Below are positions 3,208-58,026 of a DNA stretch of 64,000 bases, in pieces (the first letter of the stretch is position 1; every line of letters begins with the position of its first letter). The notes beneath the pieces were generated by a model, which was not told the DNA's origin, did no database searches, and was given only the letters and a program-made list of their open reading frames with translations. The position numbers were made by a program, and so were the translations under genes. The stretch spans positions 8,231 to 72,230 of the forward strand of contig CAZLGP010000238.1 of assembly GCA_964558905.1 (NCBI GenBank), given 5' to 3'. Source of the stretch: an uncultured Thermoanaerobaculia bacterium. Lineage in GTDB: Bacteria > Acidobacteriota > Thermoanaerobaculia > Gp7-AA8.

Positions 3208-3214
3208 CTGAAAT

Positions 3215-4112: not shown

Positions 4113-4204
4113 GAGGGTGCATTCTACTCGCGAGGGGGCTGGAGAAGAAACGGGAACCGAAACGTCCTGGCGATCTCGCGGGCTACACAGATGACTCGCC
4201 TCAC

Positions 4205-4300
4205 CGTGCGGTCGAGGCGCTCGTCTCGAAAGGCGACGTCGTCGCCCCGATCACTCTCGACAACTACCGCACCGACAAAGTTCTACCCGAGGATCGTCCC
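4205..4300 (+). pseudogene. Circularly permuted, frameshifted fragment of a paralogue of gene 2788..3207
   Basis: Plus-strand translation RAVEALVSKGDVVAPI|TLDNYRTDK(frameshift)FYPRIV. The intact gene reads TLENYRTDKFYPRIVRAVDALLSRGDVVAPI. One extra A causes the frameshift. Confidence 0.55.
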
Positions 4301-4312
4301 AGCCCGCGCGTC

Positions 4313-4900
4313 ACGAATCGGTGATGACCCTGGCGGCCGTGGCGGAAATCGGACCGCGACCTCGCGGAAATGGTCCACGACCGCGTCGAAATGGTCCGCG
4401 ACCTCGTCATTGCGATCAGTGACCTCACGGAAGAGGAGAGATTCTCGGACGCATGACGCCGCACGATCTCGAGAAAATGGTCGGGGATCCCACGTTTGTG
4501 ATTGGCGACCCCGAGCAATTGGTCTGTGACCCAACGGATTCGGTCGGCGACCGGATCCATTGGGTGGCACGACTGCCAGCGAGGGGTACCGCGATGGGAC
4601 ACGCCGGTGCTCGAAAGCAGGTGAAAATGGTCCACATACCTCGCGCGTGAGGTCGGGCAACCATTTCGATGCGGTCGCGAACCTTACGCGTGCGGTCGAC
4701 GACCATTTCGGCGCGGTGCCGGACCATTTTCGCGGAGCTCGAGCGAGGGCCCGCGCCGCGGCGCGGCAGCCACGCGCGCGGTGCGATCATCTCACGCGTG
4801 AGGTCGCAGACCGGATCGGTGCGGTCGGGGACCGGATCGCCGGCATGCTCGGACCGACCGCGTGCGATCGCCGTTCGGATCTCCGACGTCGGGGAAACGG
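4313..4900. repeat. Two inverted arrays of degenerate 21-bp repeats (about 10-11 units per arm)
   Basis: Left-arm units such as gaaatggtccacgaccgcgtc / gaaatggtccgcgacctcgtc start at 4345, 4367, 4388, 4409 ... 4557, keeping 21-bp phase. Right-arm units such as gaccatttcggcgcggtgccg start at 4659, 4680, 4701, 4722 ... 4852 and are the reverse complement. Near-palindromic centre at ~4625-4655. No long ORF spans the array. Confidence 0.8.
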
Positions 4901-4998
4901 AATGCCGGCGACGGACGACCGCGATCGTGTGGTCCCATGACCTCTTGACAGAACATCTGCCTTCGCGTTCAAAGGGCAACATACGAGGGGACACGAAA

Positions 4999-5259
4999 AT
5001 GAAGAAGATCGACGACTTTTCAAGCGGCACGCGCGGAGCGGTCGTTCCCGTCCCGCAAGGCAAGACGCGCATCACCATCCGGATCGATGACGACGTCCTC
5101 GATTGGTTTCGGGACCAGGTGAATGCCGCTGGTGGTGGAAACTATCAGACGATGATCAACAGCGCTCTCCGGGAGTTCATCGAGAATCGACGCGCGCCGC
5201 TCGAGAAGACGATTCGACGCGTGATTCGAGAGGAGCTTCGGAAGCGCGGCGCTGCGTGA
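4999..5259 (+). CDS. BrnA-type (ribbon-helix-helix) antitoxin, orphan
   Basis: 86 aa from the ATG at 4999. GKTRITIRIDDDVLDWFRDQVNAAGGGNYQTMINSALREFI is the BrnA antitoxin signature. A short upstream reading frame ends in ATGA overlap (...RVQRATYEGTRK*) and may be the last remnant of BrnT. Confidence 0.8.
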   Translation: MKKIDDFSSGTRGAVVPVPQGKTRITIRIDDDVLDWFRDQVNAAGGGNYQTMINSALREFIENRRAPLEKTIRRVIREELRKRGAA

Positions 5260-5329
5260 GACAGCTAGTCGCGACGGTCACCGCAGCTCTCTCCCTGGCG
5301 ACCATCTATCCGGATGCGCCGACGTTCTC

Positions 5330-5883
5330 GCTGTTCGACGCCGAATGATCTCGTGTGCGTCTGCGGGTCTCTTCGGTCAGCCCAACGCCTCGAACTGCGG
5401 TCGAAGGCGAAGACGGTGATGATCGCTGCGACGTGTCGCCACTCCGGTTGGACGCGTTCTGCGCTCGATTCCATTCCTCGGCGCCGTCCGTGTGGCGCAG
5501 ATGCTGGCCATCATGCGGACGCCACACCGCTTCCGAACGAAGCGGAATCTGTGGCCCTATGCCGGCCTGGCGGTGGTCAAGCACTCGAGCGCCGATCACG
5601 AATTCAAGGACGGCAAGTTGCAACGAACGAAGAAGCCACCGATGACACGGGCTTGAATCGGAACCACAACCCGATGCTGAAGGTGGTGTTCAAGGGAGCG
5701 GCGAATGCGGCCGCCTCGATGCCCGGGCCGTTGCGCGCCTTCTATGAGGCCTCGGTCGCACGAGGTGTCAAGGACGAACTGGCAAAGGTGACGCTGGCAC
5801 GCAAGATCGCGGCCGTGGCACTGCGCCTCTGGAAGCGTGGAGAGACGTTCGATGCGAAGAAACTGACGACGCAAGCGACATAG
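5330..5883 (+). pseudogene. IS110-family transposase, C-terminal remnant with several frameshifts
   Basis: Pieces in three frames: SIPFLGAVRVAQMLAIMRTPHRFRTKRNLWPYAGLAVVKHSSADHEFKDGK, then GLNRNHNPMLKVVFKGAANAAA...LRAFYEASVARGVKDELAKVTLARKIAAVALRLWKRGETF. The N-terminal DEDD catalytic domain is absent. Confidence 0.65.
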
Positions 5884-6339
5884 CGCTCGGGGAGACGACG
5901 ATCGGCGAGAGAGGGTAAGCCACTTCGCGGTCGACGTTGATCCGGGACGAAGGTTCGAGGGAGAGTCTCAGCAACGACGTTCCGCCCGACAGTCAGTAAA
6001 GTCGAGGCACACGCCTAACCACAGTCCCCCTCGGATGACCAGAAGAAGCGTCAGGCCACGCCCGGATGCAGAGAGCGCGAGTCTCGGATAGAACCATGCG
6101 ACACCACCAACGGTGATTGCCGGCGACGCTTGGAATCGTCTGTAGTGATGATCGACGGAGGCGATGGAGATGAGCTCGCGGCGCACGACTGTTCCGCCCA
6201 CCCTGGTGTCCTCACGATCGGCGCGAACCGGTTGCGGCGTGACGCCGTGACGCTGGCGACGATGCAGGCAGCTCGGCTGCCGGACCTGGGCCGGGCCGTG
6301 CCAGCTGCAGTCAAGAGTCAGGCCGCCCGTGCTCGCAGC

Positions 6340-6981
6340 TCATTGACCAGTTCCGCCAGACGGTCCTACGCGCGACCTTGGGTCTGGTGCCCAATTTTCC
6401 AGCTGAAGTTCGGTAATATCATCAGCGTTGAGAACATAAACCTTGGCATCGCGCGCGAATCGATCAACGAGGATATATCTTCCTTCGGTATAGGCGGCTA
6501 CCATTAGGCCTCGATACTGAGGAGCGAGCTGACCTGTTTCTAACTTGACACTAACAACGCGCGCACGTTGGGACGGGCCAATGAATGCTTGCGCCGTCCA
6601 ACTGACCAAAAGCACGGTTACGAACAACGTGAAAGCTATCGCGACAGCTAGCTGCCGACTCGTCAGCGTTCGTGCGAGATTGCGCCAAGCGAAGGGCTTT
6701 CCCCGCTGTCGCTCGATCGCGTGAGCAACCCAATCAAGCAAAAGCAATGGGAGTACAAACAGAAGAAGCCCCAAAGCCCCGCCGTCCATCAGGTATTCTT
6801 GTAACGGTAGCCGCGGGATCAACTCCTGCGGAACACCACGATAGAAGTATGTGGCCGAGTCGGCGGCAAATCTCCACGCGAACAGCAGCACCGACGCGAT
6901 CGCGAGGGCACCGGCCGAGTCGCTGACAATCTTGAACCGTGCAGGCGGTATCTCAGAGGCATTCGCGGGTGGCATCGCCAT
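6340..6981 (-). CDS. Hypothetical multi-pass membrane protein (start uncertain; ORF extends to 7245)
   Basis: Hydrophobic segments GALAIASVLLFAWRF, GGALGLLLFVLPLLLLDWV, LAVAIAFTLFVTVLLVSW. Visibly lower GC than the flanks. Start at MAMPPANASE (6981) chosen by eye. Confidence 0.5.
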   Translation of the reverse strand: MAMPPANASEIPPARFKIVSDSAGALAIASVLLFAWRFAADSATYFYRGVPQELIPRLPLQEYLMDGGALGLLLFVLPLLLLDWVAHAIERQRGKPFAWRNLARTLTSRQLAVAIAFTLFVTVLLVSWTAQAFIGPSQRARVVSVKLETGQLAPQYRGLMVAAYTEGRYILVDRFARDAKVYVLNADDITELQLENWAPDPRSRVGPSGGTGQ

Positions 6982-7472
6982 ACCGCAGGAGAGTCCGGAG
7001 CGCGCCCTTTCCCTACCCACCGTACCATTCTTTTCCGTCAGCAGCTTACGCACGCTTCGAAAACGTGTCACCTCCCTGGGAATCGATCTTGCCGACGTCT
7101 TCAGGCATTCTCTTACTATCGGTCGGCCCAAACTAACGTCTTTGGTGTAAGCTGCGGCGGGCTTCACGTGCCAGGAACGATGCGGCCGGCGTGACGCCGT
7201 GACGCTCGGTGATTCCGTAGCCGGCTCGGTCGGAGGGCCGGGCACCAGCCCGCCGACAGCTTCACACCTAAGTTAGGCGGCCACCTAGCCGCGCCGGCTA
7301 CAACAGGAAATAAACTGGTCGGTTATTTTGAGTTGTCGCGGCCAACTTTAGTGCGGGTGTTGCCGCCACTGCCTCGAAAGTGCCCTTCGTCTGTTTTCGG
7401 TAACTTACAGGAGCGGTCTCTTAGCAGCAGGCCGGGTGGAAGTACTTCACGCTGATTTCGGTTCCTCTCGGT

Positions 7473-8351
7473 ATGGCGAGGCCGAAGCTACAGCATCACC
7501 TCCCGAAAGCGTACCAGACGGGATTCTGCCACAAGGATCGGTTGTGGGTGTATGACCGCGTGACGGATCGTTTTCGACGCGACAGCCCTCGAAACGTAGG
7601 CGCCATCAAGGACGACTATACGTTTGATGTCGGGCAGGGTATCGATGCGCGGCTGGAGACAGGCCTGTCACGTGTTGATGGCGCCGCCGTGCCAGTGCTC
7701 GCAAAACTTCGAGCGCAGCGCTCAATCAGCGGCCAGGAACGACAAGCGTTCGCAGAGTACCTTGCGTACTTTGTGGTGAGGGTGCCCGGATTCACTAGGT
7801 GGCTGAACGAGGTTTATACGATCGAAGAGTGCGCCGACACCGACCCGGTTGCCGTCCAGGAGCTTGTTGACGCCACAAATGGTGACTTCTTCGATCCGCC
7901 CTGCGGCACCACTGCACGACTACAAACGTTCCTAACTGAGCATCGTGTCGGAAACGTACACCAAAACCATCGTCTCCACTTCCTCATCGAAACCGCGAAG
8001 ACGTTGCGTGTTGAATTTTACCGAATGGATTGGGTGATGGCTCGGCCACAGCCGTCGGCACAATTTGTCACATCCGATAACCCGTTGCTGTGGGGCTCGG
8101 AAGCGATCTCGTTCCCTGTCGCGCACGATGCTTGTTTACTAATGTTCCCGGGCGATGGCGCCACGGAGTGCTACTGGACGGCTCTGATGCGGCGTGATGT
8201 GGTCCACAGCACAAACGTGTCGACGGCTCGACACAGCGAACGGGTTGTAATCTCGCCCGACGAGAAGTACTTGCGGCGAATCGTTGAGGCGGCGGCAATC
8301 AAGGGCCGGCCTTCTCCTCCGTTGACTAGGATCGCGAATTCGTCCGCCTAA
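7473..8351 (+). CDS. DUF4238 domain protein
   Basis: 292 aa. The N-terminus HHLPKAYQTGFCHKDRLWVYDR matches the characteristic HH-x-P-x-x-Y-x-x-x-F start of DUF4238. Lower-GC islet. Confidence 0.7.
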   Translation: MARPKLQHHLPKAYQTGFCHKDRLWVYDRVTDRFRRDSPRNVGAIKDDYTFDVGQGIDARLETGLSRVDGAAVPVLAKLRAQRSISGQERQAFAEYLAYFVVRVPGFTRWLNEVYTIEECADTDPVAVQELVDATNGDFFDPPCGTTARLQTFLTEHRVGNVHQNHRLHFLIETAKTLRVEFYRMDWVMARPQPSAQFVTSDNPLLWGSEAISFPVAHDACLLMFPGDGATECYWTALMRRDVVHSTNVSTARHSERVVISPDEKYLRRIVEAAAIKGRPSPPLTRIANSSA

Positions 8352-8566
8352 CGTATCACGCCTTGAGGGGTTCCGCGGACGGTCATCCGTTGCTGGCACG
8401 CACGTGGATCGTGCAGGTACGCGGAGCCTCATAGAAACGTGCCACCGCGAAGATGTTAGTTCGTCGGCCTAATCCTTAGCGCTCAGCCGCCGAAACCGCA
8501 CGCGCTACTGTAGCACCCACGCTGCTGGTGAGGCGGTTTCGGTCGGCTGGAGCGCAGAGTTAGCCG

Positions 8567-10417
8567 TCACGCTTCGGCAAGGGCTGCTTGTTGACCTCTC
8601 GGTTTAAGTGATCCAAGTTTCGAGCCGAGCGATCGACGTATCGCAAAATCCAAGTGATACCGCGGCATGATGGCCGCCGTAAGCGCTTCCTCGGAAAGCG
8701 CCCGCCTGATGTCCTCTCCTGACCACTGGCTCGCCCCTTCGAGTGATTGAACACCCATCACTGCTTCGACGAGACTCTGTTCAAACCATTCCGTTACGAC
8801 CTCCTCAACCGTTGGGCGCGCTCCTGGCCCGTCGGAGTACAGCTTGCAGAAACGCTCAACCATGTCGTGGAAGACGCGAAAGTCTCCGTTGATCTGCAGA
8901 AGGTTCTGCTCTTTGAGATAGGTCGCGGCCCGATCGTCAAGAAATCCAGGCTGACGGGTGCCGTCTTGAACACGTACCCACATCACGGCGGGAAAGGGGT
9001 CAGCCTTTATTTTCAGAGCGGGATCGCCGGTTTGTGTTGCAAAAGCTGCGTAGACATTCCCAGCGCGACCACCGCTAGACCCGCCACCACCTTCACTGGG
9101 CTCGCGTGCTCCACTCCCATCTCGCGCCGTTCTTCCGCCCCGGCGGGGCACGTCATCGTCAACGAAGAACGATCCGGCTGGAGACGGCCGGTAGCGACTC
9201 AGTCGAAAGAGGTCTGCAATCTGCTTCAGACGCTCCCGAATGCTTTGGGCGTGGTCGCGGTTGACTCCTGCCGCTGCCGCTTCCTCGATGACGGCGCGCA
9301 CTTCGGGAGGAAGACTGTCGCGAAATTCAGAGGCCCAGTCCGCCCAAGGTAACGGATCGCTATTCAGCAGCAGCTGAGTGCGCGCGGTAGTGGGGCTCAG
9401 TTCGGTGCCGGTTCCAGGTTTCGGTTCGACGTAGATGACAACTCGGTTGTAGCCTAGGATTACCCCAAACTGCTGCAGGCGGGCAACTCCCGACCGGGAC
9501 GTCTCAATTTCATACAGTTCATCGCGATAAAGAGCAGCGACGTGGCCGCTCGAATTGATGAACCCTGAGTTTTGGCTTAGCGCGGATTCGTCTCTCAGCA
9601 CCCACCAGTGGGCTATGGCGTTTGAGAGGCTCACGTCCCCTTTCCCTGAGGCGTGATCGTCGAGATAGGCTTGCTGCCCAATAACGTTTCGGAGAAGGTT
9701 GCGGTCACCGTCGATACGGGGGTTCTCCCAACCTTCGCGTGCTTTAACTGTGACGCCGGCCGGGAATGTGAAGTAGCGCGTGTTCAGATACTTCGCGATC
9801 CACCTTGAAGGACTAGCCGTGCCAATCGGCGCCCGCATCGTGTGTTCATCGTCCGCGTTTCCAAGGAGAACCACCATCGTCCCGTGATCGCCAAGAATGT
9901 CGGGTTTCACTGAGTTTTCAATTGGGAGCCAATCGTTGAAAGTTCCGTCTGGAAGTTCGAACCGGCGGAGTCCGTACTGGCCGGTTCGAGGGTCGCGCCA
10001 GAGGTGGATCATGGCGCCTGCGCCACCGGTCCACGACAGGTACATGAGCCCCACATGGTTTCGCGTCGCCGCCGCAATCTTGGCGCCCACACCGAAGTTC
10101 CCGTCATGCGACTGAAGGGTGCTCGAGGAAGACAGTTGATTGATGTATTTCACCATCTCCGGCCCCGTCATCCCAATCCCGGTGTCAATGACGGCCAACT
10201 TGTAGATGCCGTCCCGTTCAAGGTCAAACTTCGTCCAGTCAACATCCCATCGGATCTCGCCGCGCGGGTCAGGCAGCTTGAGGATTGCTTCGATGCTGTT
10301 CTGCGTCAGCTCACGAACAAACTGAAGCGGAGCGCAATCCCGACCAAGGCGGTCGAGCATGAAGCCCATGTTGTCGATGGTGAGGGGAGATGTCTCGCGG
10401 GAAAGCTGTTTCGACAT
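8567..10417 (-). CDS. GHKL (Bergerat-fold) ATPase, MORC/HATPase_c_3-like, 616 aa
   Basis: ORF trimmed to the ATG at 10417, with AAGGAG 7-12 nt upstream. N-box FVRELTQNSIEA, G1 box AVIDTGIGM, G2 box GNFGVGAK. The long C-terminal region has no domain I recognise. Confidence 0.8.
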   Translation of the reverse strand: MSKQLSRETSPLTIDNMGFMLDRLGRDCAPLQFVRELTQNSIEAILKLPDPRGEIRWDVDWTKFDLERDGIYKLAVIDTGIGMTGPEMVKYINQLSSSSTLQSHDGNFGVGAKIAAATRNHVGLMYLSWTGGAGAMIHLWRDPRTGQYGLRRFELPDGTFNDWLPIENSVKPDILGDHGTMVVLLGNADDEHTMRAPIGTASPSRWIAKYLNTRYFTFPAGVTVKAREGWENPRIDGDRNLLRNVIGQQAYLDDHASGKGDVSLSNAIAHWWVLRDESALSQNSGFINSSGHVAALYRDELYEIETSRSGVARLQQFGVILGYNRVVIYVEPKPGTGTELSPTTARTQLLLNSDPLPWADWASEFRDSLPPEVRAVIEEAAAAGVNRDHAQSIRERLKQIADLFRLSRYRPSPAGSFFVDDDVPRRGGRTARDGSGAREPSEGGGGSSGGRAGNVYAAFATQTGDPALKIKADPFPAVMWVRVQDGTRQPGFLDDRAATYLKEQNLLQINGDFRVFHDMVERFCKLYSDGPGARPTVEEVVTEWFEQSLVEAVMGVQSLEGASQWSGEDIRRALSEEALTAAIMPRYHLDFAIRRSLGSKLGSLKPRGQQAALAEA

Positions 10418-11163
10418 GGTCAACTCCTTGTGAGAGGTAGGATTGCGACCTCTCGCTTGAAGGTGGAGCCGTGATGAAGCAGCAAAATGGGAGGCGACGC
10501 GCCTGCGACTAGCTGCAGCAACACTGCACCGGGTTGTGCGAATTGTACACCGGCTTCGCTTCGACACTCGCGACGCCCAACTTGATTTCGGTCGGCCCTG
10601 GACCGCGTTTCCGCAGCGTAGCACGGCCCAGGGCCATCAAGACGCCGGCGGTCATGCGACTCATGGCAGGTCCAGGGCTCGGTACGCCGCGGGCGCCGCA
10701 GGGTCATGGACGTGCGCCGAGACTCCATCGGTGGTCGTCGCCTCTACGCGTGGTGGAGCACCGCCGCGTGAGTTGTTAGATAAGGCGTTATGCGACGTTG
10801 CCAGGAGAGGTGCGGATAACGCGTGATGCAACGGCCTTCGGCGGCGGGCACTCCGGCGCTCGAGTGAGACTGGAATCCTCGCGTCGCGAGGACATTGGTC
10901 CGCGCGATGTGAGGTTCAGTGCCGGAGATCACCGGAGAGCACCGGAGATCATAAGGTCCCGCACCCCCTCCCTCCGCATCTGAGGCACTGCCCGGAGTCG
11001 TGGTCGCTTCTTCGGGGATCGGCGACTGCTTGTCAACCCCTCGTTTGACCGTGTCCTGAGGCGGACCAAGCCGGCGGTGCGGGCCAGGCGGCTGTGGCGG
11101 CGCCGGACTCGTAGGTCCGGCGCCGTGCATCTCAGCGGAAAGTAGTGGTCTCCTGGCGAGCCG

Positions 11164-11334
11164 TCATAGCGTCCCGAGGGCATGCAGCACTTCTTGAAAA
11201 CGCCTCCCGGAGCCGCAGGGGCAGGGGTCGTTGCGGCCGAGCTTTTCGAGCAGCTCTTTGTCGCCGTGGACGATCCGGATGCCGCGCTTCACGCGGGTTT
11301 CGGACGGATAGCCTTTCCGGCGTTTGCTGCTCAC
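11164..11334 (-). CDS. Small SEC-C motif protein, probably frameshifted at the motif
   Basis: (V)[56 protein letters not shown] 1-nt shift after GSGRR would read [13 protein letters not shown], completing the canonical CPCGSGxxFKKCC motif. Confidence 0.45.
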
Positions 11335-11448
11335 TTCAAAAGCAGAGATCCTCGTGGTTCTTACGCATGATGTGCCTCCTTGCCCATTGTGGGCGCGAGA
11401 GGATCGCACACATCGCCCCGCGCGCACCACCACCACCTCCATCGTGAT

Positions 11449-11535
11449 GCGGAAGGACGCAGGTCGGATGCAGGTCGGAATGATGAGTATGGGTGATGAG
11501 TGCGAGGGGGCGATCCCACTCATCACTCATCACTC
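11449..11535. repeat. Hairpin of tandem GATGAGT-type heptamers
   Basis: gaatgatgagtatgggtgatgagtgcgagggggcgatcccactcatcactcatcactctcat; the arms are reverse complements. Confidence 0.75.
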
Positions 11536-11628
11536 TCATGCCTTCCCGCTGGAGCGCGGCCGCCGGACAATCGTAAACGCGGCGCGGTGCTCCTCCCTCG
11601 TCCTCCAGGCGAGTGATAGCATCCGTTC

Positions 11629-11859
11629 ATGCCAGTCGCGGCAGACAGAGATGAGCTCCGAGCATGGATCGCGGGTCACGAGATCGCGAACGGGCGGCAA
11701 CGCGATCGGGTGGCGGCGATGAGTGCTGATGAGAAGCTTCGCCAGATCAGCCGGCTGATGGCCTCTGCGAGCCTGTTCGACATGTCGCGTCGCGCCGCGG
11801 GCGATCGTGCTGTGATCGAGCTGTGGCAACGGTTGCGGGCGCGCTGGCCGAGAGCCTAA
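11629..11859 (+). CDS. Hypothetical small protein, coupled to the downstream nucleotidyltransferase (possible antitoxin-like partner)
   Basis: 76-aa ORF. Its stop overlaps the next start (TAATG). Confidence 0.5.
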   Translation: MPVAADRDELRAWIAGHEIANGRQRDRVAAMSADEKLRQISRLMASASLFDMSRRAAGDRAVIELWQRLRARWPRA

Positions 11860-12428
11860 TGACGGCACAGGACGAACACCTGCGCGAGACTCTCGCCGAT
11901 CTCATGCGGTGGATCTCGGCGGAGCGACTCGAGGCAACGGTGATTGGGGGCATTGCCGCCGGCCTGCATGGACAACCACGGCTCACGGAGGACGTTGACG
12001 CCGTCGTTCTCGGCGCAGATGCGGAAGGGCTTGTCGCATCGGGGAAGCTGTATGGGTTCGAGCCACGCATTGCGGACGCTCTGGAGTTCTCGCGGCGCAC
12101 GCGCGTTCTACTGCTGCGACATCGATCCGGTGTGGATCTCGACGTGTCGTTGGGTGCCCTGCCCTTCGAGAAGGAAGTGATCGAGCGGGCCAGAGTGATC
12201 GATGCGGGAGGTCTCCAGATCAGCGTGGCTGCTCCGGAGGACATCATCATCATGAAGGCACTGGCGCGGCGTCCTCAGGATATCGCGGACATCGCCGGAA
12301 TCATCGAAGTTCAAACCGACCTCGATGTCGACCGGATTCGTCGCTGGGTGCGCGAGTTTTCCGCCATCCTCGAAATGCCGGAGATTCTCGACGATCTGGA
12401 GTTGTTGTTGCGCCGCAGAAGTCTCTGA
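11858..12428 (+). CDS. Nucleotidyltransferase-fold protein (MNT / DUF6036-like)
   Basis: ATG at 11858 (MTAQDEHLRE...). VIGGIAAGLHGQPRLTEDVDAVV is the GG-x(n)-D-x-D minimal nucleotidyltransferase motif. Confidence 0.7.
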
Positions 12429-12460
12429 CTGGTCGAGCGAATGGCCATCAACGTCGTCAC
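12299..12460 (+). repeat. Direct repeat copy 1 (functional 3' end of the nucleotidyltransferase gene)
   Basis: ~162 bp, roughly 90% identical by eye to 13289-13451. Confidence 0.85.
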
Positions 12461-12479
12461 GCGTACCTCCTCCCCCCAC

Positions 12480-12516
12480 GGAGCCCTACCCAGCACTCAG
12501 CACCCAGCACTCAGCA
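12480..12516. repeat. Tandem heptamer tract (CAGCACT/CAGCACC), same family as 25338-25398 and 51761-51849
   Basis: cccagcactcagcacccagcactcagcactcc, between convergent genes. Confidence 0.75.
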
Positions 12517-25337: not shown

Positions 25338-25398
25338 GGGGCGTGGGTGCTGGGTGCTGGGTGCTGAGTGCCTTGAGTCCTGAGTCCTGAGTCCTGAG
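25338..25398. repeat. Tandem heptamers GTGCTGG/GTGCTGA/GTCCTGA
   Basis: gggtgctgggtgctgggtgctgagtgccttgagtcctgagtcctgagtcctgagc. Confidence 0.8.
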
Positions 25399-25500
25399 CG
25401 ACGCCGCCTAGGAGCCTCTCCGGAGGTTGGGCTAGCCCCGCGCTCTGCGGAAAGAAGAATAGTCGCGGCCGCAGTTCCTGTGCGCCTCGCGAGCCCCGGG

Positions 25501-49941: not shown

Positions 49942-49974
49942 GTTGGGACAGGATACGCGCGGCGGCGAGCGAGC

Positions 49975-50140
49975 GGAGCGCCGGCTTCCAGCCGGCCGCT
50001 ACGCCGGCATCCTGCCGGCCGGACTGGGGACGCTGGGGCCGGCTGGAAGCCGGCGCCCGCGTAGCGGGCATGAGGAAATAGCCCCCGGCTTTCAGCCGGG
50101 GGTGGCGCGCGGTATCCTTGGTCAGCCCGCGTAGCGGGCG
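49975..50140. repeat. Cluster of REP-like palindromic units
   Basis: gccggcttccagccggc, ccggctggaagccggc, cccgcgtagcgggc (x2), agcccccggctttcagccggggg. Confidence 0.8.
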
Positions 50141-50278
50141 CTGGAGTTTGGCCCTTTGCAAGCCTCTGAATTCCGAAGAGAAGGCGTCGAATCCGCCTGA
50201 CGGTGAATTTCAAGCACATCGTGTTGCGATCCATTCGTTCCGCGAAGTGGGAAAAATTGTCGGCCATGTGCGGCCGGA

Positions 50279-50568
50279 CCTTGTGCCGCGGAGCGGCAGC
50301 CAGACGGTAGCCGGGGGTGCGAGCGCACAGCGCGCAACCCCCGGTAGGGCAGGATGGATCCTGTGCCGCGTCAGCGGCACCGGAGTGCGAGCTCAACCTA
50401 CGCGATGCGGGGCCCGCAACCTTAATACCGAGAGTGCGTTTCGACGTGATCCCGACATCCGGTGCCGCTGACGCGGCACCCTCCCTTGCATTCCTTTCCG
50501 GGGGTCGCTCGCTGAGCGCTCGCACCCCCGGCTACGGTCTGGCTGCCGCTCCGCGGCACAGGATAAGG
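50279..50568. repeat. Inverted pair of a ~105-bp element separated by ~77 bp (MITE-like or structured element)
   Basis: Left arm ccttgtgccgcggagcggcagccagacggtagccgggggtgcgagcgc...gtgccgcgtcagcggcaccgg. The reverse complement of the right arm aligns along its whole length, with a divergent middle third. Confidence 0.8.
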
Positions 50569-50624
50569 CCGCTTCAAGTCGGCGTAGACCGTACGGCGCA
50601 GAGCTCAGCAGGGCCAAACTCCAG

Positions 50625-50870
50625 AGCCCGCGTAGCGGGCGAAAGAGTCGTTCTGTCGCCCGCTACGCGGGCTGGACTCTAACGGTCGCAATTCCCCCGG
50701 CTGAAGCCGGGGGCTAGTCCCAGCCCGCTACGCGGGCATTGGGCAACAGGCCCTTCAGCCGGGGCTATTTCCTTTTGCCCACTACGCGGCTCCGAATCAC
50801 GCGCTGCGTGCGAATGTCCAAACTCCAGGCCGGCTGGAAGCCGGCGTAGCGGCCGCCAGGATGGCGGCGC
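50625..50870. repeat. Cluster of REP-like palindromic units in both orientations
   Basis: cccgcgtagcgggc, gcccgctacgcggg (x2), cccccggctgaagccggggg, ccggctggaagccggc. Confidence 0.8.
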
Positions 50871-50880
50871 TCCGCGCGTT

Positions 50881-51744
50881 TCATGTGAGCCTCGTCCACA
50901 CGATCAGCGCGTTCACGCCGATCGCGATGCCCGGCACGATCAGCGCGCGCAACGCCGCCAGCGGGCGTCCTTCGAGCTCGCCGTGGAGATCGAACCTTGG
51001 GCGCGACGGGGCCTCGTCGATCACGTAGGCCTTCGACGGATCATCCGGATCGTAGAGCAGCGCCTCGGTGGGCTCGTCCTCGAGGCGCGTGGTGTCGACG
51101 GCGCGCGCGCAGCATTCGCGCCGCTGTCCGTGGCGATCGTGGAACTCGAAGACGACTTCCCACACGGGCTGATCGTTGATGGTGATGTTCGTCGGCCTCC
51201 GGTCGATCGCTCTCCCTTTCGCCAGGATGCCCTCGCGCAGGAGGTGATTGCGCTTCCGCCCGGCGAGCGTGGACGGGATGAGGAAGCCCAGACCGACCGC
51301 CGGGAAGATGGCGACGAGGAGCGCGGCCGGCCCGAACGTCGCCCTGCGCATCCCGGCGATGCGCGAGCGATGGGGGCTGTTCTCGTCGTACTCGATCGTG
51401 ACTCTCTCACCCTGCGCCGGCGATGCGCCGGTCGTATACGACTTGCCCTGGAACCACTCCCCGGCGACCGAGTACTCGTAGTGATTCGCGGTCACCGCCT
51501 GGTCGTTCTCCGAGGCGCCGGTGCTCTCGACACGGGTGACGTGGCCGGTCGCGCGGCCGGTGACGTCGCGGAACGTCACGAAGGAATAGTCCGCGTTCAT
51601 CCCGAAGACCAGGAAGAAGATCATGCCGAAGCCGAATACGCCCCAGCCGATCTGCGCCCAACCGTTGAAGAAGTTGACCATGCGCAGCGAGATCGGGACG
51701 CGGCGCGGCGGCGCCGAGAAACGCAATGGGTTGTGCATGGGCAC
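50881..51744 (-). CDS. DUF3592-like membrane protein
   Basis: Two N-terminal region TM spans plus one central and one C-terminal TM span flanking beta-rich domains (GHVTRVESTGASENDQAVTANHYEYSVAGEWFQGKSY). 287 aa. Confidence 0.6.
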   Translation of the reverse strand: MPMHNPLRFSAPPRRVPISLRMVNFFNGWAQIGWGVFGFGMIFFLVFGMNADYSFVTFRDVTGRATGHVTRVESTGASENDQAVTANHYEYSVAGEWFQGKSYTTGASPAQGERVTIEYDENSPHRSRIAGMRRATFGPAALLVAIFPAVGLGFLIPSTLAGRKRNHLLREGILAKGRAIDRRPTNITINDQPVWEVVFEFHDRHGQRRECCARAVDTTRLEDEPTEALLYDPDDPSKAYVIDEAPSRPRFDLHGELEGRPLAALRALIVPGIAIGVNALIVWTRLT

Positions 51745-51760
51745 TAGGATAACGGGAGTT

Positions 51761-51849
51761 CTGAGTGTTGAGTCCTGAGTCCTGAGTGCTGAGTGCTGAG
51801 TGCTGAGTGCTGGGTGCTGAGGACTCAGGACTCAGAACTCAGGACTCGG
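51761..51849. repeat. Hairpin of tandem heptamers (CTGAGTG/CTGAGTC vs GACTCAG)
   Basis: ctgagtgttgagtcctgagtcctgagtgctgagtgctgagtgctgagtgctgggtgctgag|gactcaggactcagaactcaggactcgg, in a divergent promoter region. Confidence 0.85.
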
Positions 51850-51884
51850 CCCGGCGCTCATCGTACAATACGGCCCGATCCGCA

Positions 51885-52520
51885 ATGTGGAAGAAGCTAC
51901 TACTCGCTCTCGCGGCGCTGCTCGTGGTCGGCGCCGGCGTGATGGTCGCGAAGATCGGGCCGCGCAACGTCATCGGCATGATCCTCTACGACCAGCGGCG
52001 TGAAGGCGACCTGAAGGTCGGCGATCGCGCGCCGGACGCGCTGCTCGTCTCGTTGGACGGGAAGACGCGGCCACCGCTCCTCGAGGCGGACGCGAACAAG
52101 CCGACCGTGTTGATCTTCGGCAGCTTCACGTGACCTCCGTTCCGGCGGTCGGTCGACCGTCTCCGGAAAATGCACGAGCAGTACGGGGACCGCGTCCGCT
52201 TCCAAACCGTCTACATCCGGGAGGCGCATCCGCTCGACGAGTGGCAGATGGACTCGAACGAGAAAGAGGACGTGTGCTACCGCCAACCGAAGACGATGGC
52301 GGAGCGCCTCGTGATCGCGAATGATTTCGTGAAGCGCTTCCAGTACCCGATCCCGCTCGCGGTCGACGCGATGGACGATCCGGTGGAGAAGGTCTACGCC
52401 GGCTGGCCGGAGCGCTTCTACATCATCGATCCGGGCGGCACGATCGTCTACAAGGGTGAGCCCGGGCCGTTCGGCTTCCACCCCGAGGAGGTGGAGGCGT
52501 GGCTGAGGACGAACGTGTGA
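51885..52520 (+). CDS. Iodothyronine-deiodinase-like thioredoxin-fold selenoprotein (in-frame TGA = Sec at 52131..52133)
   Basis: Track ORFs 51807..52133 and 52170..52520 are in the same frame. Read-through gives VLIFGSFT-U-PPFRRSVDRLRKMHEQYGDRVRFQTVYIREAHPLDEW, matching the deiodinase active site FGS-x-T-U-P-(S/P)-F ... VYI-x-EAH-x-x-D-x-W. N-terminal TM/signal MWKKLLLALAALLVVGAGV. Confidence 0.8.
52140..52168 (+). promoter_or_regulatory. Candidate bacterial SECIS hairpin
   Basis: Starts 7 nt after the UGA: uuccgg-cgguc-GGUC-gaccg-ucu-ccggaa (6-bp + 5-bp stems, G/U-containing apical loop). Confidence 0.55.
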
Positions 52521-52563: not shown

Positions 52564-55500
52564 ATGCGCAAGATCCTCGTGCTCCTGCTGCTCTCCCTCA
52601 CCGCCGCGGCACCGCAGGATTCCTACCAGCGTCTGAAGGCCGATGCCGAGCGCGAGTACTCCGAGAAATCGTTCCGCCGCGCTCACCAGCTCTACGAACA
52701 GGCCGCGAAGCTGACCCTTCCTGAAGACGAGCGGCGGTGGGTCGACCTTCGTCTGGCGGACACGGCGTGGCGCGCCGATGCGGCATCGCCGAATGAAGAT
52801 CCCACCGAGAGGAACGCTGCTCGCGAGGCGCTGCTGCAGTTCGTCGGGAAGTGGACGCACGACCGGCTCTGGGCCGAGGCCAACGAATCGCTCGGCGACC
52901 TCTACGCACAGCATCCTTGGGAGCGGAACGCCGGCGCCGCGCAGCCCTACTACCTTGCCGCGCTCGACTGGTGGGCCGGCAGCAGCGATCTCGCCGTCGC
53001 GCGCCGCCGCTATCTCGACATCGTCTGGAAGCTGACGGCCGAGGGCGTCCGCTGGAACGTGCCGCGGGAAGTGCTCGTGAACGCCGTCGCCATCGCGGAG
53101 ACCCCAAAGGATCGCGTGCGCGCGCGGTGGTTCCTTGCGCAGAGGATTGCGATGGAACGGACGGACGCGAGCGATGAGCGCGCCTTCGAGCTCCTCGATG
53201 AGATCCTCGCCATCGGAAAGACGAGCGATCTGTACGACGACGCGCTCCACTTCTACGCTTCGACGCTCGCCCAGCGCGGCGACTTCGCGAAGGCGCTCGA
53301 GATCTATCGTCGCATCGTCGCGGAGCTCCCCGCCGGCACCTCGCGCTTCGCCGAACAGGCCCGGCGTGCGATCGCCGAGATCCTCGAGCCCTCGGTGGGC
53401 GTACACGTGGGCGGCACGTTCCTCCCCGAGTCCGAGCAGGAAGTCTTCCTCACCTGGCGCAACGTGAAGAGCGTCCGCCTGGCGCTCGTCAGCGTCGACC
53501 TCACGAAGGACGCCCGCTACGACGAGCGCGGGCAGTGGACGAACCTCATTGCCACCGAGGGGCGGCCGGTGGTGCGGCAGTGGACGTTCGACACGAACGA
53601 CACCGGCGAGCACAAGCCGGGCAGCGACCGCCTCCGTCTGGAGCCGCGCCTCCCGCTCGGCGCGTACGTTCTGACCGCATCCGCCGAGGGGAAGAGCGCG
53701 CGCACGCTGGTCCTCGTGACCGACGCGCACATCCTGGTGCACGCGGGCGCGTCGCAGACGAACATCTTCGTCTCGGACGTGATCACCGGCGAGCCGATCG
53801 CGAACGCTCGTGTGCACGTCTGGCGGCGCGTCGGGAACGACCGCTTCGTCGAGCGCAACGCGCAGACGAACGCGGAAGGACTGGCGCGCGTCGAGGACGG
53901 ACAGAGGAGCGGAATGACGCTCGTCACCGTCGCGAGCGGCTCGCGTCAGGCGTATCACCAGTTCCACGACTACTCCTACGGCCGGCGCACGGAGGATCAG
54001 GCATCGTGGCGCATCTACGCGTTCACCGATCGTCCCGCGTACCGTCCGGGCGAGACCGTGCAGTGGAAGATGCTGGCGCGAATCCGCCAGAACGATGACT
54101 GGGTGACGCCGCACGGCGAGTCGCTCGACTACGAGATCGTCGACCCGCGCGGACAGAAAGTCGCCTCGGGTGTCGCGAAGCTGAGTGCCTTCGGCAGTTT
54201 CTGGTCCGAGCTCGCTCTCACCGATGCCATGCCCCTCGGCGTCTATCACGTCAATTTCAAATCGAAAGACCAGCATCGCGGCGCGGCGCAGCTCTTCCGC
54301 CTCGAGGAGTACAAGCTCCCCGAATTTCTGGTGAAGGTGTCGACGCCGGAAGGAACGCTGTACCGCACCGGCGACACCATCGAGGCGACCATCGACGCGA
54401 CGTACTACTTCGGCGGGCCGGTCGCGAACGCGACGGTCGAGGTGGTCGTCCACCAGTCGCCCTTCTATCGCTACTGGACACCGTGGCGCGAGTACTCCTG
54501 GTACTACGACCCTCACCCGACGTCGTATGGCGGAACGATCGTCAAACGCGAGACCCTGCAGACCGACGGCAACGGGCGCGCGGTCGTGCGCATCGATACG
54601 CCGCAGGATTCGGGCGACATGAGCTATCGCATCGAGGCGCGCGTGGTCGACGCGTCGCGCCGCGAGGTGCGGGGTGAAGGAAGCGTGCGCGTGATGCGGC
54701 AGCGGTATTCGGTGATCGCGCATCCCGAGCACCGTGTGCATCGCCCGGGCGACAGCGTTTCGGTCGACTTCAAGGCGATGGACGCGAACGACAAGCCGGT
54801 GCAGGCGACGGGGACGGTAACCGTGTTGCGGCGGCGCAACGATCGCGAGATCAGGCCCGTCTCCGGGCGGATCGGAACGCCGCGCCCGCGCGTGGATGAC
54901 GAGGGAATCCTCACTACGAAGGTCACGACCGACGCCGAGGGGGAGGCGACATTCACGTTCACGCCGAAGTCGGTTGGCTATTACGTGATCCGTTGGACGA
55001 GCACGGACGGGCCGCGCGCGCGCGACGTCATCACCGCGGAAACGGCGGTATGGGTCAGCGAGCGTGCGACGACGGAGCTCGGTTACCGCGCCGGCAGCCT
55101 GGACATCGTCGTCGACAAGGAGACGATGCGGACCGGCGAGACGGCGAACGTGATGATCGTCGCCCCGAACAGCGGCCGCTGGGTGCTCTTCAGCTCGAGC
55201 GGCGACGACCTCTTCGACACGCGGGTGCTGCGGATGGACGGCACGGTGAAGCTCGTGCAGATCCCTCTGACGGAGAAGCACATCCCGAACTTCTTCGTCA
55301 CCGCGTCGTCGGTGTTCGACGTCAGCGTCTCCACCGATACGGAACAGATCGTCGTGCCGCCGGTCGAGCGCTTCATCGACGTCGAAGTAGAGACCGATCG
55401 CGAGGCCTACGAGCCACGGCAGGAGGGGACGGTCACGATCACGACCCGCGATGTGGATGGCAAGCCGGTCGCGGCGGAGGTCGGGTTGTCGGTCTCCGAC

Positions 55501-58026
55501 GAAGCGGTGACGGCGATCCAGAGCGACATGGCGGGCGACCCGCGACAGTTTTTCTATGGCGACAAGCGCGGCAACGTCGTTCGCGTCAGCGCGGGGCTGC
55601 AGACGCAGCGCTATCTGAAGGTCGAGGAGCAGGAGGAAGAGAGGAAGAAGGAGCGCGACGAGATGGCTGTCGCGAAGCAGAGCGGCGTGGCGGGCGGTGT
55701 GGTCCGCGCGCGCGCGGAAGGCTTCGCAATGGACGCGGCGCAGATGGCGCCTCCGCCGCCTCCCGCCCCGGTTTCGGCGCCGGCTGCGGTCGCGGAGTCC
55801 ATCACCGTCACGGGCGGCGAGGCCGCGAACGCGATCGAAGTCCAGGTGCGCAGCGACTTCCGCTCGACCGCCCTGTGGGTGCCGGACGTCGTCACCGATG
55901 CGAGCGGCACGGCGACGGTGAAGGTGAAGTACCCCGAGGCGCTGACGACGTGGCGGGCAACCGCGCGCGCGGCGAGCGCGGGGGCGCAGTTCGGCATGTC
56001 CTCTTCGACCACCCGGACGTCGATGCCGCTGCTCGTGCGGCTCCAGGGGCCGCGGTTCTTCGTCGCCGGCGACCGTGTCGTGATCTCGGCAGTGATGAAC
56101 AACAACACCGACGAGGCTCTGACGGTGACGCCGTCACTCGAGGTCGAAGGACTCTCCCTGCAGACGCGCACGCACGCGGCGGTGACTGTGCCCGCGCGTG
56201 GCGAAGCGCGAGCGGACTGGACGGTCATCGCCGAGAAGGCGGGTCCCGCGAAACTGCGTGTGACCGCGCGCTCGTCGCAGTACGGCGACGCGATGGAGAA
56301 GACCTTCGCCGTCTACGAGCACGGCATCGACAAGCTGATCGCGCGCTCCGGCAAGATGCGTGGCAACGAAGCGCTGATCCGCCTCGAGCTCCCCCGCGAG
56401 CGCCGCGCCACCGATCTCACCGTGCAGATCGCGCCGACGCTCGCCACGACCATGCTCGACGCGCTGCCGTATCTCATCGAGTTCCCGTACGGCTGCACCG
56501 AGCAGACGATGTCCCGCTTCCTCCCCGCGGTCGTCGTGGCCCGCACGATCGAGAAGCTCGGCCTCGGCCGGGCCCGCATCGCCGGGAAGGACCTCGACGC
56601 GGTGACGAAGGCCGGCATTGCGCGGCTGTACGACATGCAGCACGGCGACGGCGGCTGGGGCTGGTGGAAGGACGGCGACAGCGACCCGTTCATGACCGCG
56701 TACGTCGTGTGGGGCTTCGCCATCGCTCGCGACGCGGGGCTGAACATCGACGCCGGGCGCGTCGACCGCGCGGCGGAATGGCTCGAACGCAATCTCGTAC
56801 AGCGCGAAGGTGCCCATCACGATCAGACGTGGATCCTCCACGCGCTGTCCGCGTGGCGGAAGGCGCCGGGCGCGAATGCGCGCAAGGCATTCGACGACGT
56901 CTGGAAGAATCGCGAGAAGCTGAGCGCGTACTCGCGCGCGCTGCTCGCCCTGACCGCGCATCGCTGGGGCGACGCGGAGCGCGCGCGCGTCCTGATCCGC
57001 AATCTTGAGGACGGCGTGCGCATCGACAGGACGCCCGATCAGTCGGTATTGCTGAAGGGCGAAACGACGGCCTCGTCCAGGGGCCAGACAACGTCGGAGA
57101 CCATGCAGACCGCGTACTGGGGCGCGCGCGGCTTCTGGTGGCGCTGGCACGAGGGGCCGGTCGAGACGACGGCCTTCGCCCTGCAGGCGCTCGTCACCAT
57201 CGATCCCGAGAATCGCCTCGTCGAGCCGGTGATGAACTGGCTGGTGAAGAATCGCCGCGGGCGGCAGTGGAACAACACGCGCGACACGGCCATCGCGCTC
57301 TTGGCGATCAACGACTACCTCGAGCGCAGCGGCGAGCTCGCGGGTGACATCGCGTATGAGTTGTCGGTGAACGGGCGAGTCATCGCCACGAAGGCGTTGA
57401 CCGCGAAGGAAGTGCTCGACGCGCCGAGCCGCTTCGCCGTCGATCCTGGTGTGCTCACGGACACCACGCAGGAGATTCTCATCCGTCGCACGCGCGGAAA
57501 GGGGCCGATCTACTTTTCGGCCGAGGCGCGGTTCGTGTCGCTCGAGGAGCCGGTGAAGGCCGCCGGCAACGAGATCTTCGTCCGCCGCGAGTACTTCCGC
57601 CTGGCGCCGCGCCCGACGCTGCTCAAGGGCGTGCAGTACGACCGCCTCCCGCTGCGCGACCAGGAGTCGGTGAAGAGCGGCGAGCGGGTGGAGGTGGTCG
57701 TCACGATCGACTCGAAGAACGACTACAGCTATCTCGTGTTCGAGGATCTGAAGCCCGCCGGCTTCGAAGCCATAGAGCTGCAGAGCGGACTGCCGCTCTA
57801 TGCCCAGTCGCCGACGAAGGGCTCGGTCTGGGTCTATCAGGAGCTGCGCGATCGCAAGGTGGCGATGTTCGTCGATCAACTGCCGCAGGGCATCTGGGAG
57901 ATCCGCTACACGCTGCGCGCGGAAGTGCCCGGATCGTTCCACGCGCTGCCGCTGCTCGGCCAGGCGATGTACGTGCCGGACGTGCGGGCCAACGGGGACG
58001 AGGTGAGGGTACGGGTGGAGGACTGA
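52564..58026 (+). CDS. Bacterial alpha-2-macroglobulin family protein with intact thioester motif
   Basis: ATG at 52564 with signal peptide MRKILVLLLLSLTAAAP. N-terminal TPR-like region, MG domains, thioester FPYGCTEQTMSRF. ~1820 aa. Confidence 0.9.
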   Translation: MRKILVLLLLSLTAAAPQDSYQRLKADAEREYSEKSFRRAHQLYEQAAKLTLPEDERRWVDLRLADTAWRADAASPNEDPTERNAAREALLQFVGKWTHDRLWAEANESLGDLYAQHPWERNAGAAQPYYLAALDWWAGSSDLAVARRRYLDIVWKLTAEGVRWNVPREVLVNAVAIAETPKDRVRARWFLAQRIAMERTDASDERAFELLDEILAIGKTSDLYDDALHFYASTLAQRGDFAKALEIYRRIVAELPAGTSRFAEQARRAIAEILEPSVGVHVGGTFLPESEQEVFLTWRNVKSVRLALVSVDLTKDARYDERGQWTNLIATEGRPVVRQWTFDTNDTGEHKPGSDRLRLEPRLPLGAYVLTASAEGKSARTLVLVTDAHILVHAGASQTNIFVSDVITGEPIANARVHVWRRVGNDRFVERNAQTNAEGLARVEDGQRSGMTLVTVASGSRQAYHQFHDYSYGRRTEDQASWRIYAFTDRPAYRPGETVQWKMLARIRQNDDWVTPHGESLDYEIVDPRGQKVASGVAKLSAFGSFWSELALTDAMPLGVYHVNFKSKDQHRGAAQLFRLEEYKLPEFLVKVSTPEGTLYRTGDTIEATIDATYYFGGPVANATVEVVVHQSPFYRYWTPWREYSWYYDPHPTSYGGTIVKRETLQTDGNGRAVVRIDTPQDSGDMSYRIEARVVDASRREVRGEGSVRVMRQRYSVIAHPEHRVHRPGDSVSVDFKAMDANDKPVQATGTVTVLRRRNDREIRPVSGRIGTPRPRVDDEGILTTKVTTDAEGEATFTFTPKSVGYYVIRWTSTDGPRARDVITAETAVWVSERATTELGYRAGSLDIVVDKETMRTGETANVMIVAPNSGRWVLFSSSGDDLFDTRVLRMDGTVKLVQIPLTEKHIPNFFVTASSVFDVSVSTDTEQIVVPPVERFIDVEVETDREAYEPRQEGTVTITTRDVDGKPVAAEVGLSVSDEAVTAIQSDMAGDPRQFFYGDKRGNVVRVSAGLQTQRYLKVEEQEEERKKERDEMAVAKQSGVAGGVVRARAEGFAMDAAQMAPPPPPAPVSAPAAVAESITVTGGEAANAIEVQVRSDFRSTALWVPDVVTDASGTATVKVKYPEALTTWRATARAASAGAQFGMSSSTTRTSMPLLVRLQGPRFFVAGDRVVISAVMNNNTDEALTVTPSLEVEGLSLQTRTHAAVTVPARGEARADWTVIAEKAGPAKLRVTARSSQYGDAMEKTFAVYEHGIDKLIARSGKMRGNEALIRLELPRERRATDLTVQIAPTLATTMLDALPYLIEFPYGCTEQTMSRFLPAVVVARTIEKLGLGRARIAGKDLDAVTKAGIARLYDMQHGDGGWGWWKDGDSDPFMTAYVVWGFAIARDAGLNIDAGRVDRAAEWLERNLVQREGAHHDQTWILHALSAWRKAPGANARKAFDDVWKNREKLSAYSRALLALTAHRWGDAERARVLIRNLEDGVRIDRTPDQSVLLKGETTASSRGQTTSETMQTAYWGARGFWWRWHEGPVETTAFALQALVTIDPENRLVEPVMNWLVKNRRGRQWNNTRDTAIALLAINDYLERSGELAGDIAYELSVNGRVIATKALTAKEVLDAPSRFAVDPGVLTDTTQEILIRRTRGKGPIYFSAEARFVSLEEPVKAAGNEIFVRREYFRLAPRPTLLKGVQYDRLPLRDQESVKSGERVEVVVTIDSKNDYSYLVFEDLKPAGFEAIELQSGLPLYAQSPTKGSVWVYQELRDRKVAMFVDQLPQGIWEIRYTLRAEVPGSFHALPLLGQAMYVPDVRANGDEVRVRVED

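Follow-up and report, generated by a model that had tools for sequence, protein, structure and literature searches.

What is a single in-frame TGA doing in an otherwise uninterrupted bacterial reading frame, immediately after residues that resemble the active site of the animal iodothyronine deiodinases? The question is raised by a locus in the 64-kb window analyzed here (the window being the whole stretch of 64,000 nucleotides, taken from contig CAZLGP010000238.1 of an uncultured Thermoanaerobaculia bacterium). Two open reading frames (ORFs) of this locus, 51807..52133 and 52170..52520, share one forward frame. An initial annotation, made from the sequence alone, had noted that nothing but the TGA at 52131-52133 parts them and had proposed that this codon specifies selenocysteine (Sec). 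Checking the frame bears out the first point: from the ATG at 51885 to the terminal TGA (52518-52520), this one forward frame contains no other stop. Our answer to the question, to which we would assign a probability of roughly 0.9, is that 51885-52520 is one intact gene, that it encodes a predicted membrane-anchored, thioredoxin-fold protein of the deiodinase family, and that Sec is placed at position 83 of that protein by UGA recoding.

Across the internal TGA the frame reads …VLIFGSFT, then the TGA, then PPFRRSVDRLRKMHEQYG…. Both halves have the third-position guanine-cytosine (GC) content of coding sequence, 0.83 and 0.90 in a window with 65% GC. When all six frames were scanned for pairs of coding-like stretches with a TGA between them, only this site came up in the window, so that no second selenoprotein gene was found there. 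What the joined product belongs to is clear from profile searches. (For searching, the TGA was replaced by Cys in the 211-residue query.) The Pfam family T4_deiodinase, PF00837, matches at 120.9 bits (E 6.9e-35, with a gathering threshold of 27 bits) and the match extends over model positions 68-235 of 237; AhpC-TSA, Thioredoxin_8 and Redoxin also match, weakly, at 17-24 bits. The solved cores of mouse Dio2 (9h48) and Dio3 (4tr3) are matched at E 3e-20 and 6e-20, and the TGA falls on the position at which Sec was changed to Cys in each of them (fgsatCppf and fgsctCppf, respectively). The correspondence to a deiodinase active site that the initial annotation had seen, with the TGA exactly at the Sec position, is thus upheld. 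Among NCBIfam models the best match is to NF038285, 'deiodinase_rel', at 192.5 bits over positions 177-338 of 347, which is the catalytic domain; the N-terminal 176 model positions are missing, and the curated cut-off of 250 bits is not reached.

Structure comparison points the same way. The AlphaFold (AF2) model of P0001, the nearest Cys-containing homologue of full length, which is 55% identical to the window protein (predicted local distance difference test score, pLDDT, 86.7), has Dio3 (4tr3) and Dio2 (9h48) as its top matches in the PDB, with E 3e-14 and 7e-13, template-modeling (TM) scores of 0.75-0.77 and 30-33% identity. A second tier of matches, with 12-21% identity, consists of ResA, TlpA, DsbE and 1-Cys peroxiredoxins.

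The case for Sec rests on comparison among relatives. With each species represented by a single genome, a tblastn scan yielded 80 orthologous loci, each from a different species and up to ~20 kb long, with alignments that span the TGA at 60-86% identity. Most of them come from metagenome-assembled genomes (MAGs) of Thermoanaerobaculia and other Acidobacteriota; with the window sequence they form the set of 81 to which the following counts refer. The initial annotation had raised the prospect of TGA or Cys at this column among relatives, and both are found. The codon is TGA in 80 of the 80 loci, and hence in 81/81 with the window; the homologues in which it specifies Cys are more distant. The true stop codons of these same 81 genes are TGA in 52, TAG in 26 and TAA in 3; therefore an ordinary stop at codon 83 would not be expected to stay TGA. 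If the sequences were independent, which ignores their shared ancestry, the probability of an all-TGA column would be (52/81)^81, or about 3e-16. Throughout the set the protein is strongly conserved both before and after the TGA. The full-length Cys relatives are a handful, at ~50% identity. P0001, P0003, P0004, P0021 and P0056 have FG(S/G)FT-C-PPF, the Cys codon being TGC in P0001 and TGT in P0004. No second selenoprotein gene was found in the 80 loci, the ten candidates there being adjacent genes in the same frame.

Just downstream of the UGA lies a hairpin that has the properties of a bacterial selenocysteine insertion sequence (SECIS). The 45 nt from the TGA onward align without gaps in all 81 sequences. 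RNAalifold folds this alignment to one helix, in which columns 15-20 pair with columns 25-30 around a GGUC loop that is kept in 80/81; the UGA-to-loop distance of 17 nt (52134-52150) is free of insertions and deletions. Of all cells in the helix, 94.9% are paired, compared with 25-64% in controls slid along the alignment. Compensatory double changes affect three pairs out of six, two of them switching from G:C to C:G and the third from U:A to G:C; the double-changed cells number 32 where 7.9 are expected, and 0 of 500 shuffles reach the observed values. In the window the stem has a seventh pair, G52144-C52161, and thus joins 52144-52150 with 52155-52161. The initial annotation had drawn a hairpin in two tiers that begins 7 nt after the UGA and had made its conservation in related genomes a matter of consequence. 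The hairpin is conserved; its upper stem and GGUC loop, with covariation, and its location just downstream of the UGA all stand. The lower tier (UCCGG/CCGGA) is specific to the window sequence, and the conserved helix starts 11 nt after the UGA. (The two-tier version, with UCCGG/CCGGA outside and CGGUC/GACCG inside, is the centroid fold of a 40-nt piece.)

The helix has left its mark on the protein that it also encodes. Position 87 (Ser or Ala) and position 89 (Asp, Glu, Gly or Ala) co-vary because their codons pair with each other in the hairpin: the change of Ser87 (UCG) to Ala (GCG) is coupled with that of Glu89 (GAG) to Ala (GCG). Even a synonymous choice, that of CGC or CGG for Arg86, follows the presence of Glu versus Asp at position 89. 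In the loop, codon choice is frozen. Val is GTC in 80/81, compared with 65% elsewhere in the same genes, and Ser is TCG in 72/73, compared with 36%. This is a clean natural case of a SECIS constraining protein evolution.

In the published model of bacterial SECIS elements (bSECIS), an apical loop of 3-9 nt tops an upper stem of 4-16 bp; one of the first two loop positions is a G, mostly with G or U next to it; the loop lies 16-37 nt past the UGA; and the minimum free energy does not exceed -7.5 kcal/mol (PMC13188914). The window hairpin lies within all four of these published bounds; its folding energy is -11.6 kcal/mol for the 25 nt of 52141-52165 and -15.6 kcal/mol for the 40 nt of 52131-52170. 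Two of the Cys-containing homologues are informative in this regard. P0001 (locus L086, 29-664), in which the Sec codon is replaced by TGC, retains an intact GGUC hairpin, which is best read as the relic of a recent Sec-to-Cys conversion. In the distant P0004, with TGT, the hairpin is absent and the peptide reads RRNTGD instead. The two are natural controls that tie the hairpin to the UGA. From the alignment we infer that the hairpin is a bacterial SECIS, maintained by selection and tied to the UGA, and we predict that it binds SelB.

Several results pull in the other direction. ARAGORN found no tRNA-Sec in the 64-kb window (which contains no tRNA gene at all) or in the 80 loci, and tblastn with E. 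coli SelA, SelB and SelD (from NC_000913.3) gave no match at E <= 1e-3 in either. Folded as a single sequence, the hairpin, which lies in GC-rich DNA, is no better than its shuffles (z -0.8 to -1.4), and for that reason its significance rests on the comparative data. Rfam has no match at gathering score in the whole window or at E <= 10 in 52080-52260. The E. coli fdhF element has a bulged U that the window hairpin lacks. The conserved UGA and the SECIS signature lead us to assume that the genome encodes the Sec machinery. Sec use is on record for some Acidobacteria (three families and four selenoproteins in 2006; PMC1794560); for the Thermoanaerobaculia specifically, we found nothing in the literature. 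If decoding follows the established bacterial pathway, the SelB·GTP·Sec-tRNA(Sec) complex would bind the GGUC loop with the ribosome at the UGA, and Sec would be delivered there instead of termination by release factor 2.

What might an enzyme of this kind do? For Dio2 and Dio3, a set of Ser, Thr, Tyr, Glu and His residues is described as a proton-relay network (PMC11592359). The residues that align to these, S80, T82, Y110, E113 and H115, are invariant in the 81 orthologues, as is W120. The protein has one other cysteine, Cys131, 48 residues downstream of Sec83; the active-site motif itself is U-P-P-F and has neither CxxC nor UxxC. In the wider family Cys131 is present only in the nearest subgroups; V or L takes its place in the distant Cys forms P0003, P0004, P0021 and P0056. 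It is a candidate for the role of resolving cysteine in the following scheme. The selenolate of Sec83, activated by Ser80/Thr82 and the Tyr110/Glu113/His115 network, would abstract an electrophilic atom from the substrate and thereby form a selenenyl intermediate. Cys131, in a flexible loop that is specific to deiodinases, might resolve that intermediate to a selenenylsulfide, and a thiol reductant would then regenerate the enzyme.

The substrate is predicted to be something other than a thyronine amino acid, since Pro stands in for both the carboxylate-clamping Arg and the distal His of the animal deiodinases: Dio3 Arg275 corresponds to Pro193, and the distal relay His (Dio2 His182) to an invariant Pro135. 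(Dio3 Cys239 aligns to Ile156.) Thyroid hormone is not expected in soil bacteria, and no thyronine-related genes were seen in the neighbourhoods of the gene. The two replacements also count against the proposed enzyme mechanism, and the neighbouring genes (DUF3592, DUF2127, formamidase-like, alpha-2-macroglobulin), which are variable and uninformative, do nothing to help it. That the abstracted atom is a halogen, as in the deiodinases, carried by a halogenated aromatic other than a thyronine, is our preferred suggestion, but a tentative one that we would back at well under even odds. The clade is common across the Thermoanaerobaculia and other Acidobacteriota of soil and keeps the U-P-P-F motif of the animal enzymes. 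The more specific proposal, that it is a true selenium-dependent reductive dehalogenase of natural halogenated phenolics, is unlikely. Were it true, it would reveal a cobalamin-independent dehalogenation of aryl halides in soil bacteria and a prokaryotic ancestor of the chemistry of thyroid-hormone deiodination.

The alternative that survives best concerns this function. The protein could be a Sec-dependent peroxidase of peroxiredoxin-like type, or a membrane-anchored thiol-disulfide oxidoreductase of the ResA/TlpA/CcmG type, and would then reduce peroxides or protein disulfides at the membrane; we regard this as a serious contender that falls a little short of an even chance. The weak Pfam matches to AhpC-TSA, Thioredoxin_8 and Redoxin fit it, as do the structural neighbours that come after Dio2 and Dio3 (ResA, DsbE, TlpA-like proteins and 1-Cys peroxiredoxins), the absence of the thyronine-clamping Arg and an N-terminal anchor like that of ResA and TlpA. 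Deiodinases are themselves described as peroxiredoxin-like (PMC11592359), and the 2005 description of the bacterial family, which did not expect thyroid hormones in bacteria, suggested a generic redox role (PMC1088965). Set against all this is the edge of the deiodinase-specific insertion, YIxEAHPxDEW, which is invariant here and absent from the ResA and peroxiredoxin families. The match to the deiodinases is also by far the stronger one (120.9 bits versus 17-24; 30-33% identity, with TM 0.75-0.77, versus 12-21%), the U-P-P-F motif is not that of a CxxC or UxxC enzyme, and CcdA or DsbD, AhpF and TrxB are not among the conserved neighbours. Nor does any redox-partner or halogen-related gene recur in the neighbourhoods of the 80 loci. 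A dehalogenase on one side and a peroxidase or disulfide reductase, taken together, on the other are about equally likely, and sequence context decides neither.

Alternatives to Sec as the residue at position 83 fare much worse. The UGA could be recoded to insert something else: Cys, by way of a SelB-delivered, tRNA(Sec)-like tRNA(Cys), or Trp or another amino acid, by way of a suppressor tRNA or a reassigned code. Such devices exist. The tRNA(Sec)-like tRNA(Cys) species, selC*, and suppressor allo-tRNAs, the latter notably in Acidobacteria, are on record; selC*, however, has been reported from Firmicutes, Thermodesulfobacteria, Nitrospirae and Proteobacteria and not from Acidobacteria (PMC5389517). 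A reassigned code is contradicted by the use of TGA as an ordinary stop in 52/81 of the same genes. A Joint Genome Institute (JGI) record, P0006 (L085, 3-893), does translate the same TGA as Trp, with 'W' at the column, but this is an artefact of a TGA=Trp translation table, under which an upstream TGA was read through as well, to give a protein of 296 residues. The position is, moreover, the Sec position of the animal enzymes, and the family is catalogued as a selenoprotein family (PMC1088965, PMC13188914). We therefore give recoding to a residue other than Sec only a slim chance.

Public data treat the locus, and the family, differently. An ordinary gene caller would break the gene into an N-terminal piece of 82 residues and a piece of 116 residues that restarts at Met97; the window's exact 116-residue ORF appears among recorded gene calls. 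The initial annotation had expected just such splitting by standard gene callers, and the family is full of it. In a set of 5.8 billion proteins, the close homologues (68-90% identical) form more than 100 clusters, all of them fragments of 116-140 residues whose first residue corresponds to Met97. Gene callers that stop at the UGA leave just this pattern, the fragments being the C-terminal halves of orthologues that contain Sec. Their labels (P0002-P0120) include 'type I thyroxine 5'-deiodinase', 'Iodothyronine deiodinase' and 'hypothetical protein'. A profile-free search, with clusters formed at 50% identity, returned 2,972 of them at E <= 1e-3, of which 909 reach E <= 1e-10; among the best 150, many are cut short at this same point. 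This is mis-annotation on a large scale, from which one homologue, the Trp-containing JGI protein, was rescued only through the wrong genetic code. That the TGA is nevertheless a genuine stop, in a pseudogene or between two small genes (for an 82-residue membrane peptide and a 116-residue protein from Met97), agrees with what these public gene calls say of the fragment clusters and of the 116-residue ORF, and with the failure to find sel genes nearby, but is scarcely credible: a lesion would not share its codon and column across 81 sequences of 60-86% identity under purifying selection on both sides, a functional stop would vary between TGA, TAG and TAA, as it does at the real ends of these genes, a split would fall between beta1 and alpha1 of the thioredoxin fold, at the catalytic residue, and the supposed start at Met97 is Leu or Ile in several loci.

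The features of the Sec-encoding gene are collected in the table below.

Table. Features of the deiodinase-like selenoprotein gene, in window coordinates
Feature	Position	Strand	Basis and remarks
Deiodinase-like selenoprotein coding sequence (CDS)	51885..52520	+	211 codons including Sec83, plus stop TGA 52518-52520; PF00837, Dio2 and Dio3 matches
N-terminal basic residues and hydrophobic segment WKKLLLALAALLVVGAGVMVAK, predicted single membrane anchor or signal-anchor	51888..51953	+	Sequence, orthologues, AF2 model of P0001
UGA codon 83 in FGSFT-U-PPF	52131..52133	+	TGA in 81/81; Cys (TGC, TGT) in homologues; aligns to Sec-to-Cys position of 4tr3 and 9h48
Spacer from UGA to conserved hairpin, 11 nt	52134..52144	+	No indels in 81 sequences; equals E. 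coli fdhF
Conserved SECIS core, 6 bp (52145-52150 with 52155-52160), loop GGUC 52151-52154	52145..52160	+	RNAalifold, covariation, frozen codons
Y110-I-R-E113-A-H115-P-L-D-E-W120, edge of deiodinase-specific insertion	52212..52244	+	Invariant in orthologues; aligns to YI(D/E)EAHPSDGW of Dio2 and Dio3
Cys131 (V-C-Y), sole other cysteine, candidate resolving Cys	52275..52277	+	Invariant in 81/81 Sec-type orthologues

The N-terminus of the protein is MWKK followed by ~19 hydrophobic residues, and a similar pattern of basic and then hydrophobic residues is found in the orthologues; in the AF2 model of P0001, residues 2-25 form a helix. A cleavable signal peptide (V-M-V-A, then K) was considered and rejected, its motif not being kept in the orthologues. 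For this reason an uncleaved N-terminal anchor is the more likely prediction.

Gene neighbourhoods were compared over the 80 loci (counts out of 81 include the window). The most persistent neighbour is a DUF3592 membrane protein, encoded at 50881-51744 on the reverse strand and thus divergent from the selenoprotein gene, with which it is paired in 36/81. A DUF2127 protein is found in 25, and so is a formamidase-like one. On the other side lies a gene of the alpha-2-macroglobulin (A2M) type, from an ATG at 52564 to 58026 on the forward strand. Its product, ~1,820 residues long, has MG, bait-region and TED domains as well as a signal peptide, and its thioester motif is CTEQ. The initial annotation had placed a thioester A2M gene 44 nt downstream; the gene is indeed there, but the gap, from the stop at 52520 to the ATG at 52564, is 43 nt. 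A2M adjoins the selenoprotein gene in 9/80 loci. All nine belong to the 15 nearest relatives, and none of the remaining 65 loci has this arrangement; given so narrow a distribution, we ascribe no functional weight to it and rejected a meaningful A2M linkage. A penicillin-binding protein is often reported as the partner encoded beside bacterial A2M genes. The next gene past A2M in the window is convergent and encodes a zf-HC2/Ada/MGMT-domain protein.

The divergent intergenic region upstream of the selenoprotein gene, 51756-51847, is made up of tandem heptamers. GAGTGCT occurs there ~9 times and is followed by four copies of the nearly complementary AGGACTC, and the region folds to one long hairpin of -78 kcal/mol (z -7.4). 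Arrays of this same heptamer type, CTGAGTS, occur at two further intergenic sites of the window, 12488-12514 and 25357-25399 (17 matches, where 0.19 are expected). They are also found in two of the related loci, L001 and L012 (4628-4696), and in L083 (5-44), a Logan contig that bears the window's own ORF. Candidate explanations for the arrays are a family of repeats, a mobile element and a regulatory element.

Two other parts of the window stand out. Over the ~10 kb of 2600-12500, GC is 0.59-0.63, compared with ~0.66, and long ORFs are few: one for a DUF4238 protein (7473-8351, forward), one of 685 residues with a weak HATPase_c match (8567-10624, reverse) and one of 301 residues with no Pfam match (6340-7245, reverse). 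This segment may be a horizontally acquired island. Between the amino-acid permease and DUF3592 genes, some 900 bases (49950-50880) hold overlapping ORFs on both strands, none of them with gene-like third-position GC; no Rfam match was found in this interval.

How does the window gene compare with what is already on record? In 2005, Zhang, Fomenko and Gladyshev reported from the Sargasso Sea metagenome bacterial deiodinase-like proteins, both Sec- and Cys-containing, together with bacterial SECIS elements; the authors thought that their function was probably a different redox role (PMC1088965). The family is listed under PF00837 in a 2026 review of prokaryotic selenoproteins (PMC13188914). The initial annotation was thus right in recalling that bacterial selenoproteins of this kind, with function unknown, had been described before. 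The 2005 family and the window gene have much in common: PF00837, a catalytic Sec encoded by UGA, a SECIS just downstream with a G in its small loop, and Cys-containing homologues. They differ in that the catalogue gives the motif of the representative as 'UxxC' (PMC13188914), whereas the window clade, like the animal deiodinases, has U-P-P-F, with its second Cys 48 residues on, and in provenance, the original members being from marine metagenomes and the window clade from MAGs of Thermoanaerobaculia and other Acidobacteriota. Long Cys-type relatives with the motif FGNFTCGPF are a separate subgroup among the representatives.

With Dio1, Dio2 and Dio3 the window protein shares the thioredoxin fold with the Dio insertion, FGSxT-Sec-PPF, the Ser/Thr/Tyr/Glu/His relay and the Trp, a single N-terminal hydrophobic anchor, and ~30-33% identity over the catalytic core. 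The Dio genes, in contrast, have a kink-turn SECIS in the 3' untranslated region (3'-UTR), where the window SECIS is a short hairpin inside the CDS, 11 nt after the UGA. The proteins differ as well at His182 of Dio2 and at Arg275 and Cys239 of Dio3 (here Pro135, Pro193 and Ile156, as already mentioned), and the invariant Cys131 is unrelated to the Dio3 cysteine. ResA, TlpA, DsbE, AhpE and LsfA are like the window protein in their thioredoxin fold, in having the nucleophile at the N-terminus of alpha1 and in their N-terminal anchor; they differ in their low identity (12-21%), in lacking the Dio insertion, and in having a CxxC or peroxiredoxin-type site in place of T-U-P-P-F.

For the SECIS the comparison is with the E. 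coli fdhF element, which in NC_000913.3 reads UGA, an 11-nt spacer and GGUUGCA-GGUC-UGCACC. Both elements lie inside the CDS and have an 11-nt spacer, a GGUC tetraloop and an upper stem of ~6 bp. The fdhF element differs in the bulged U of its 5' arm, which sets the loop 18 nt after the UGA rather than 17, and the window element has no conserved lower stem that reaches back to the UGA. Bacterial SECIS elements in many cases look like neither one another nor those of E. coli (PMC13188914); that of the window is unusually close to the fdhF prototype.

This is, then, a known selenoprotein family, and the window gene extends it by one member or, at the outside, by a populous clade from soil; it is no new kind of system, and the principles of what is known about selenoproteins are unchanged by it. 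For a family whose substrate has been unknown for twenty years, the clade nevertheless provides a large and defined set of proteins with an invariant second Cys and with natural Cys variants.

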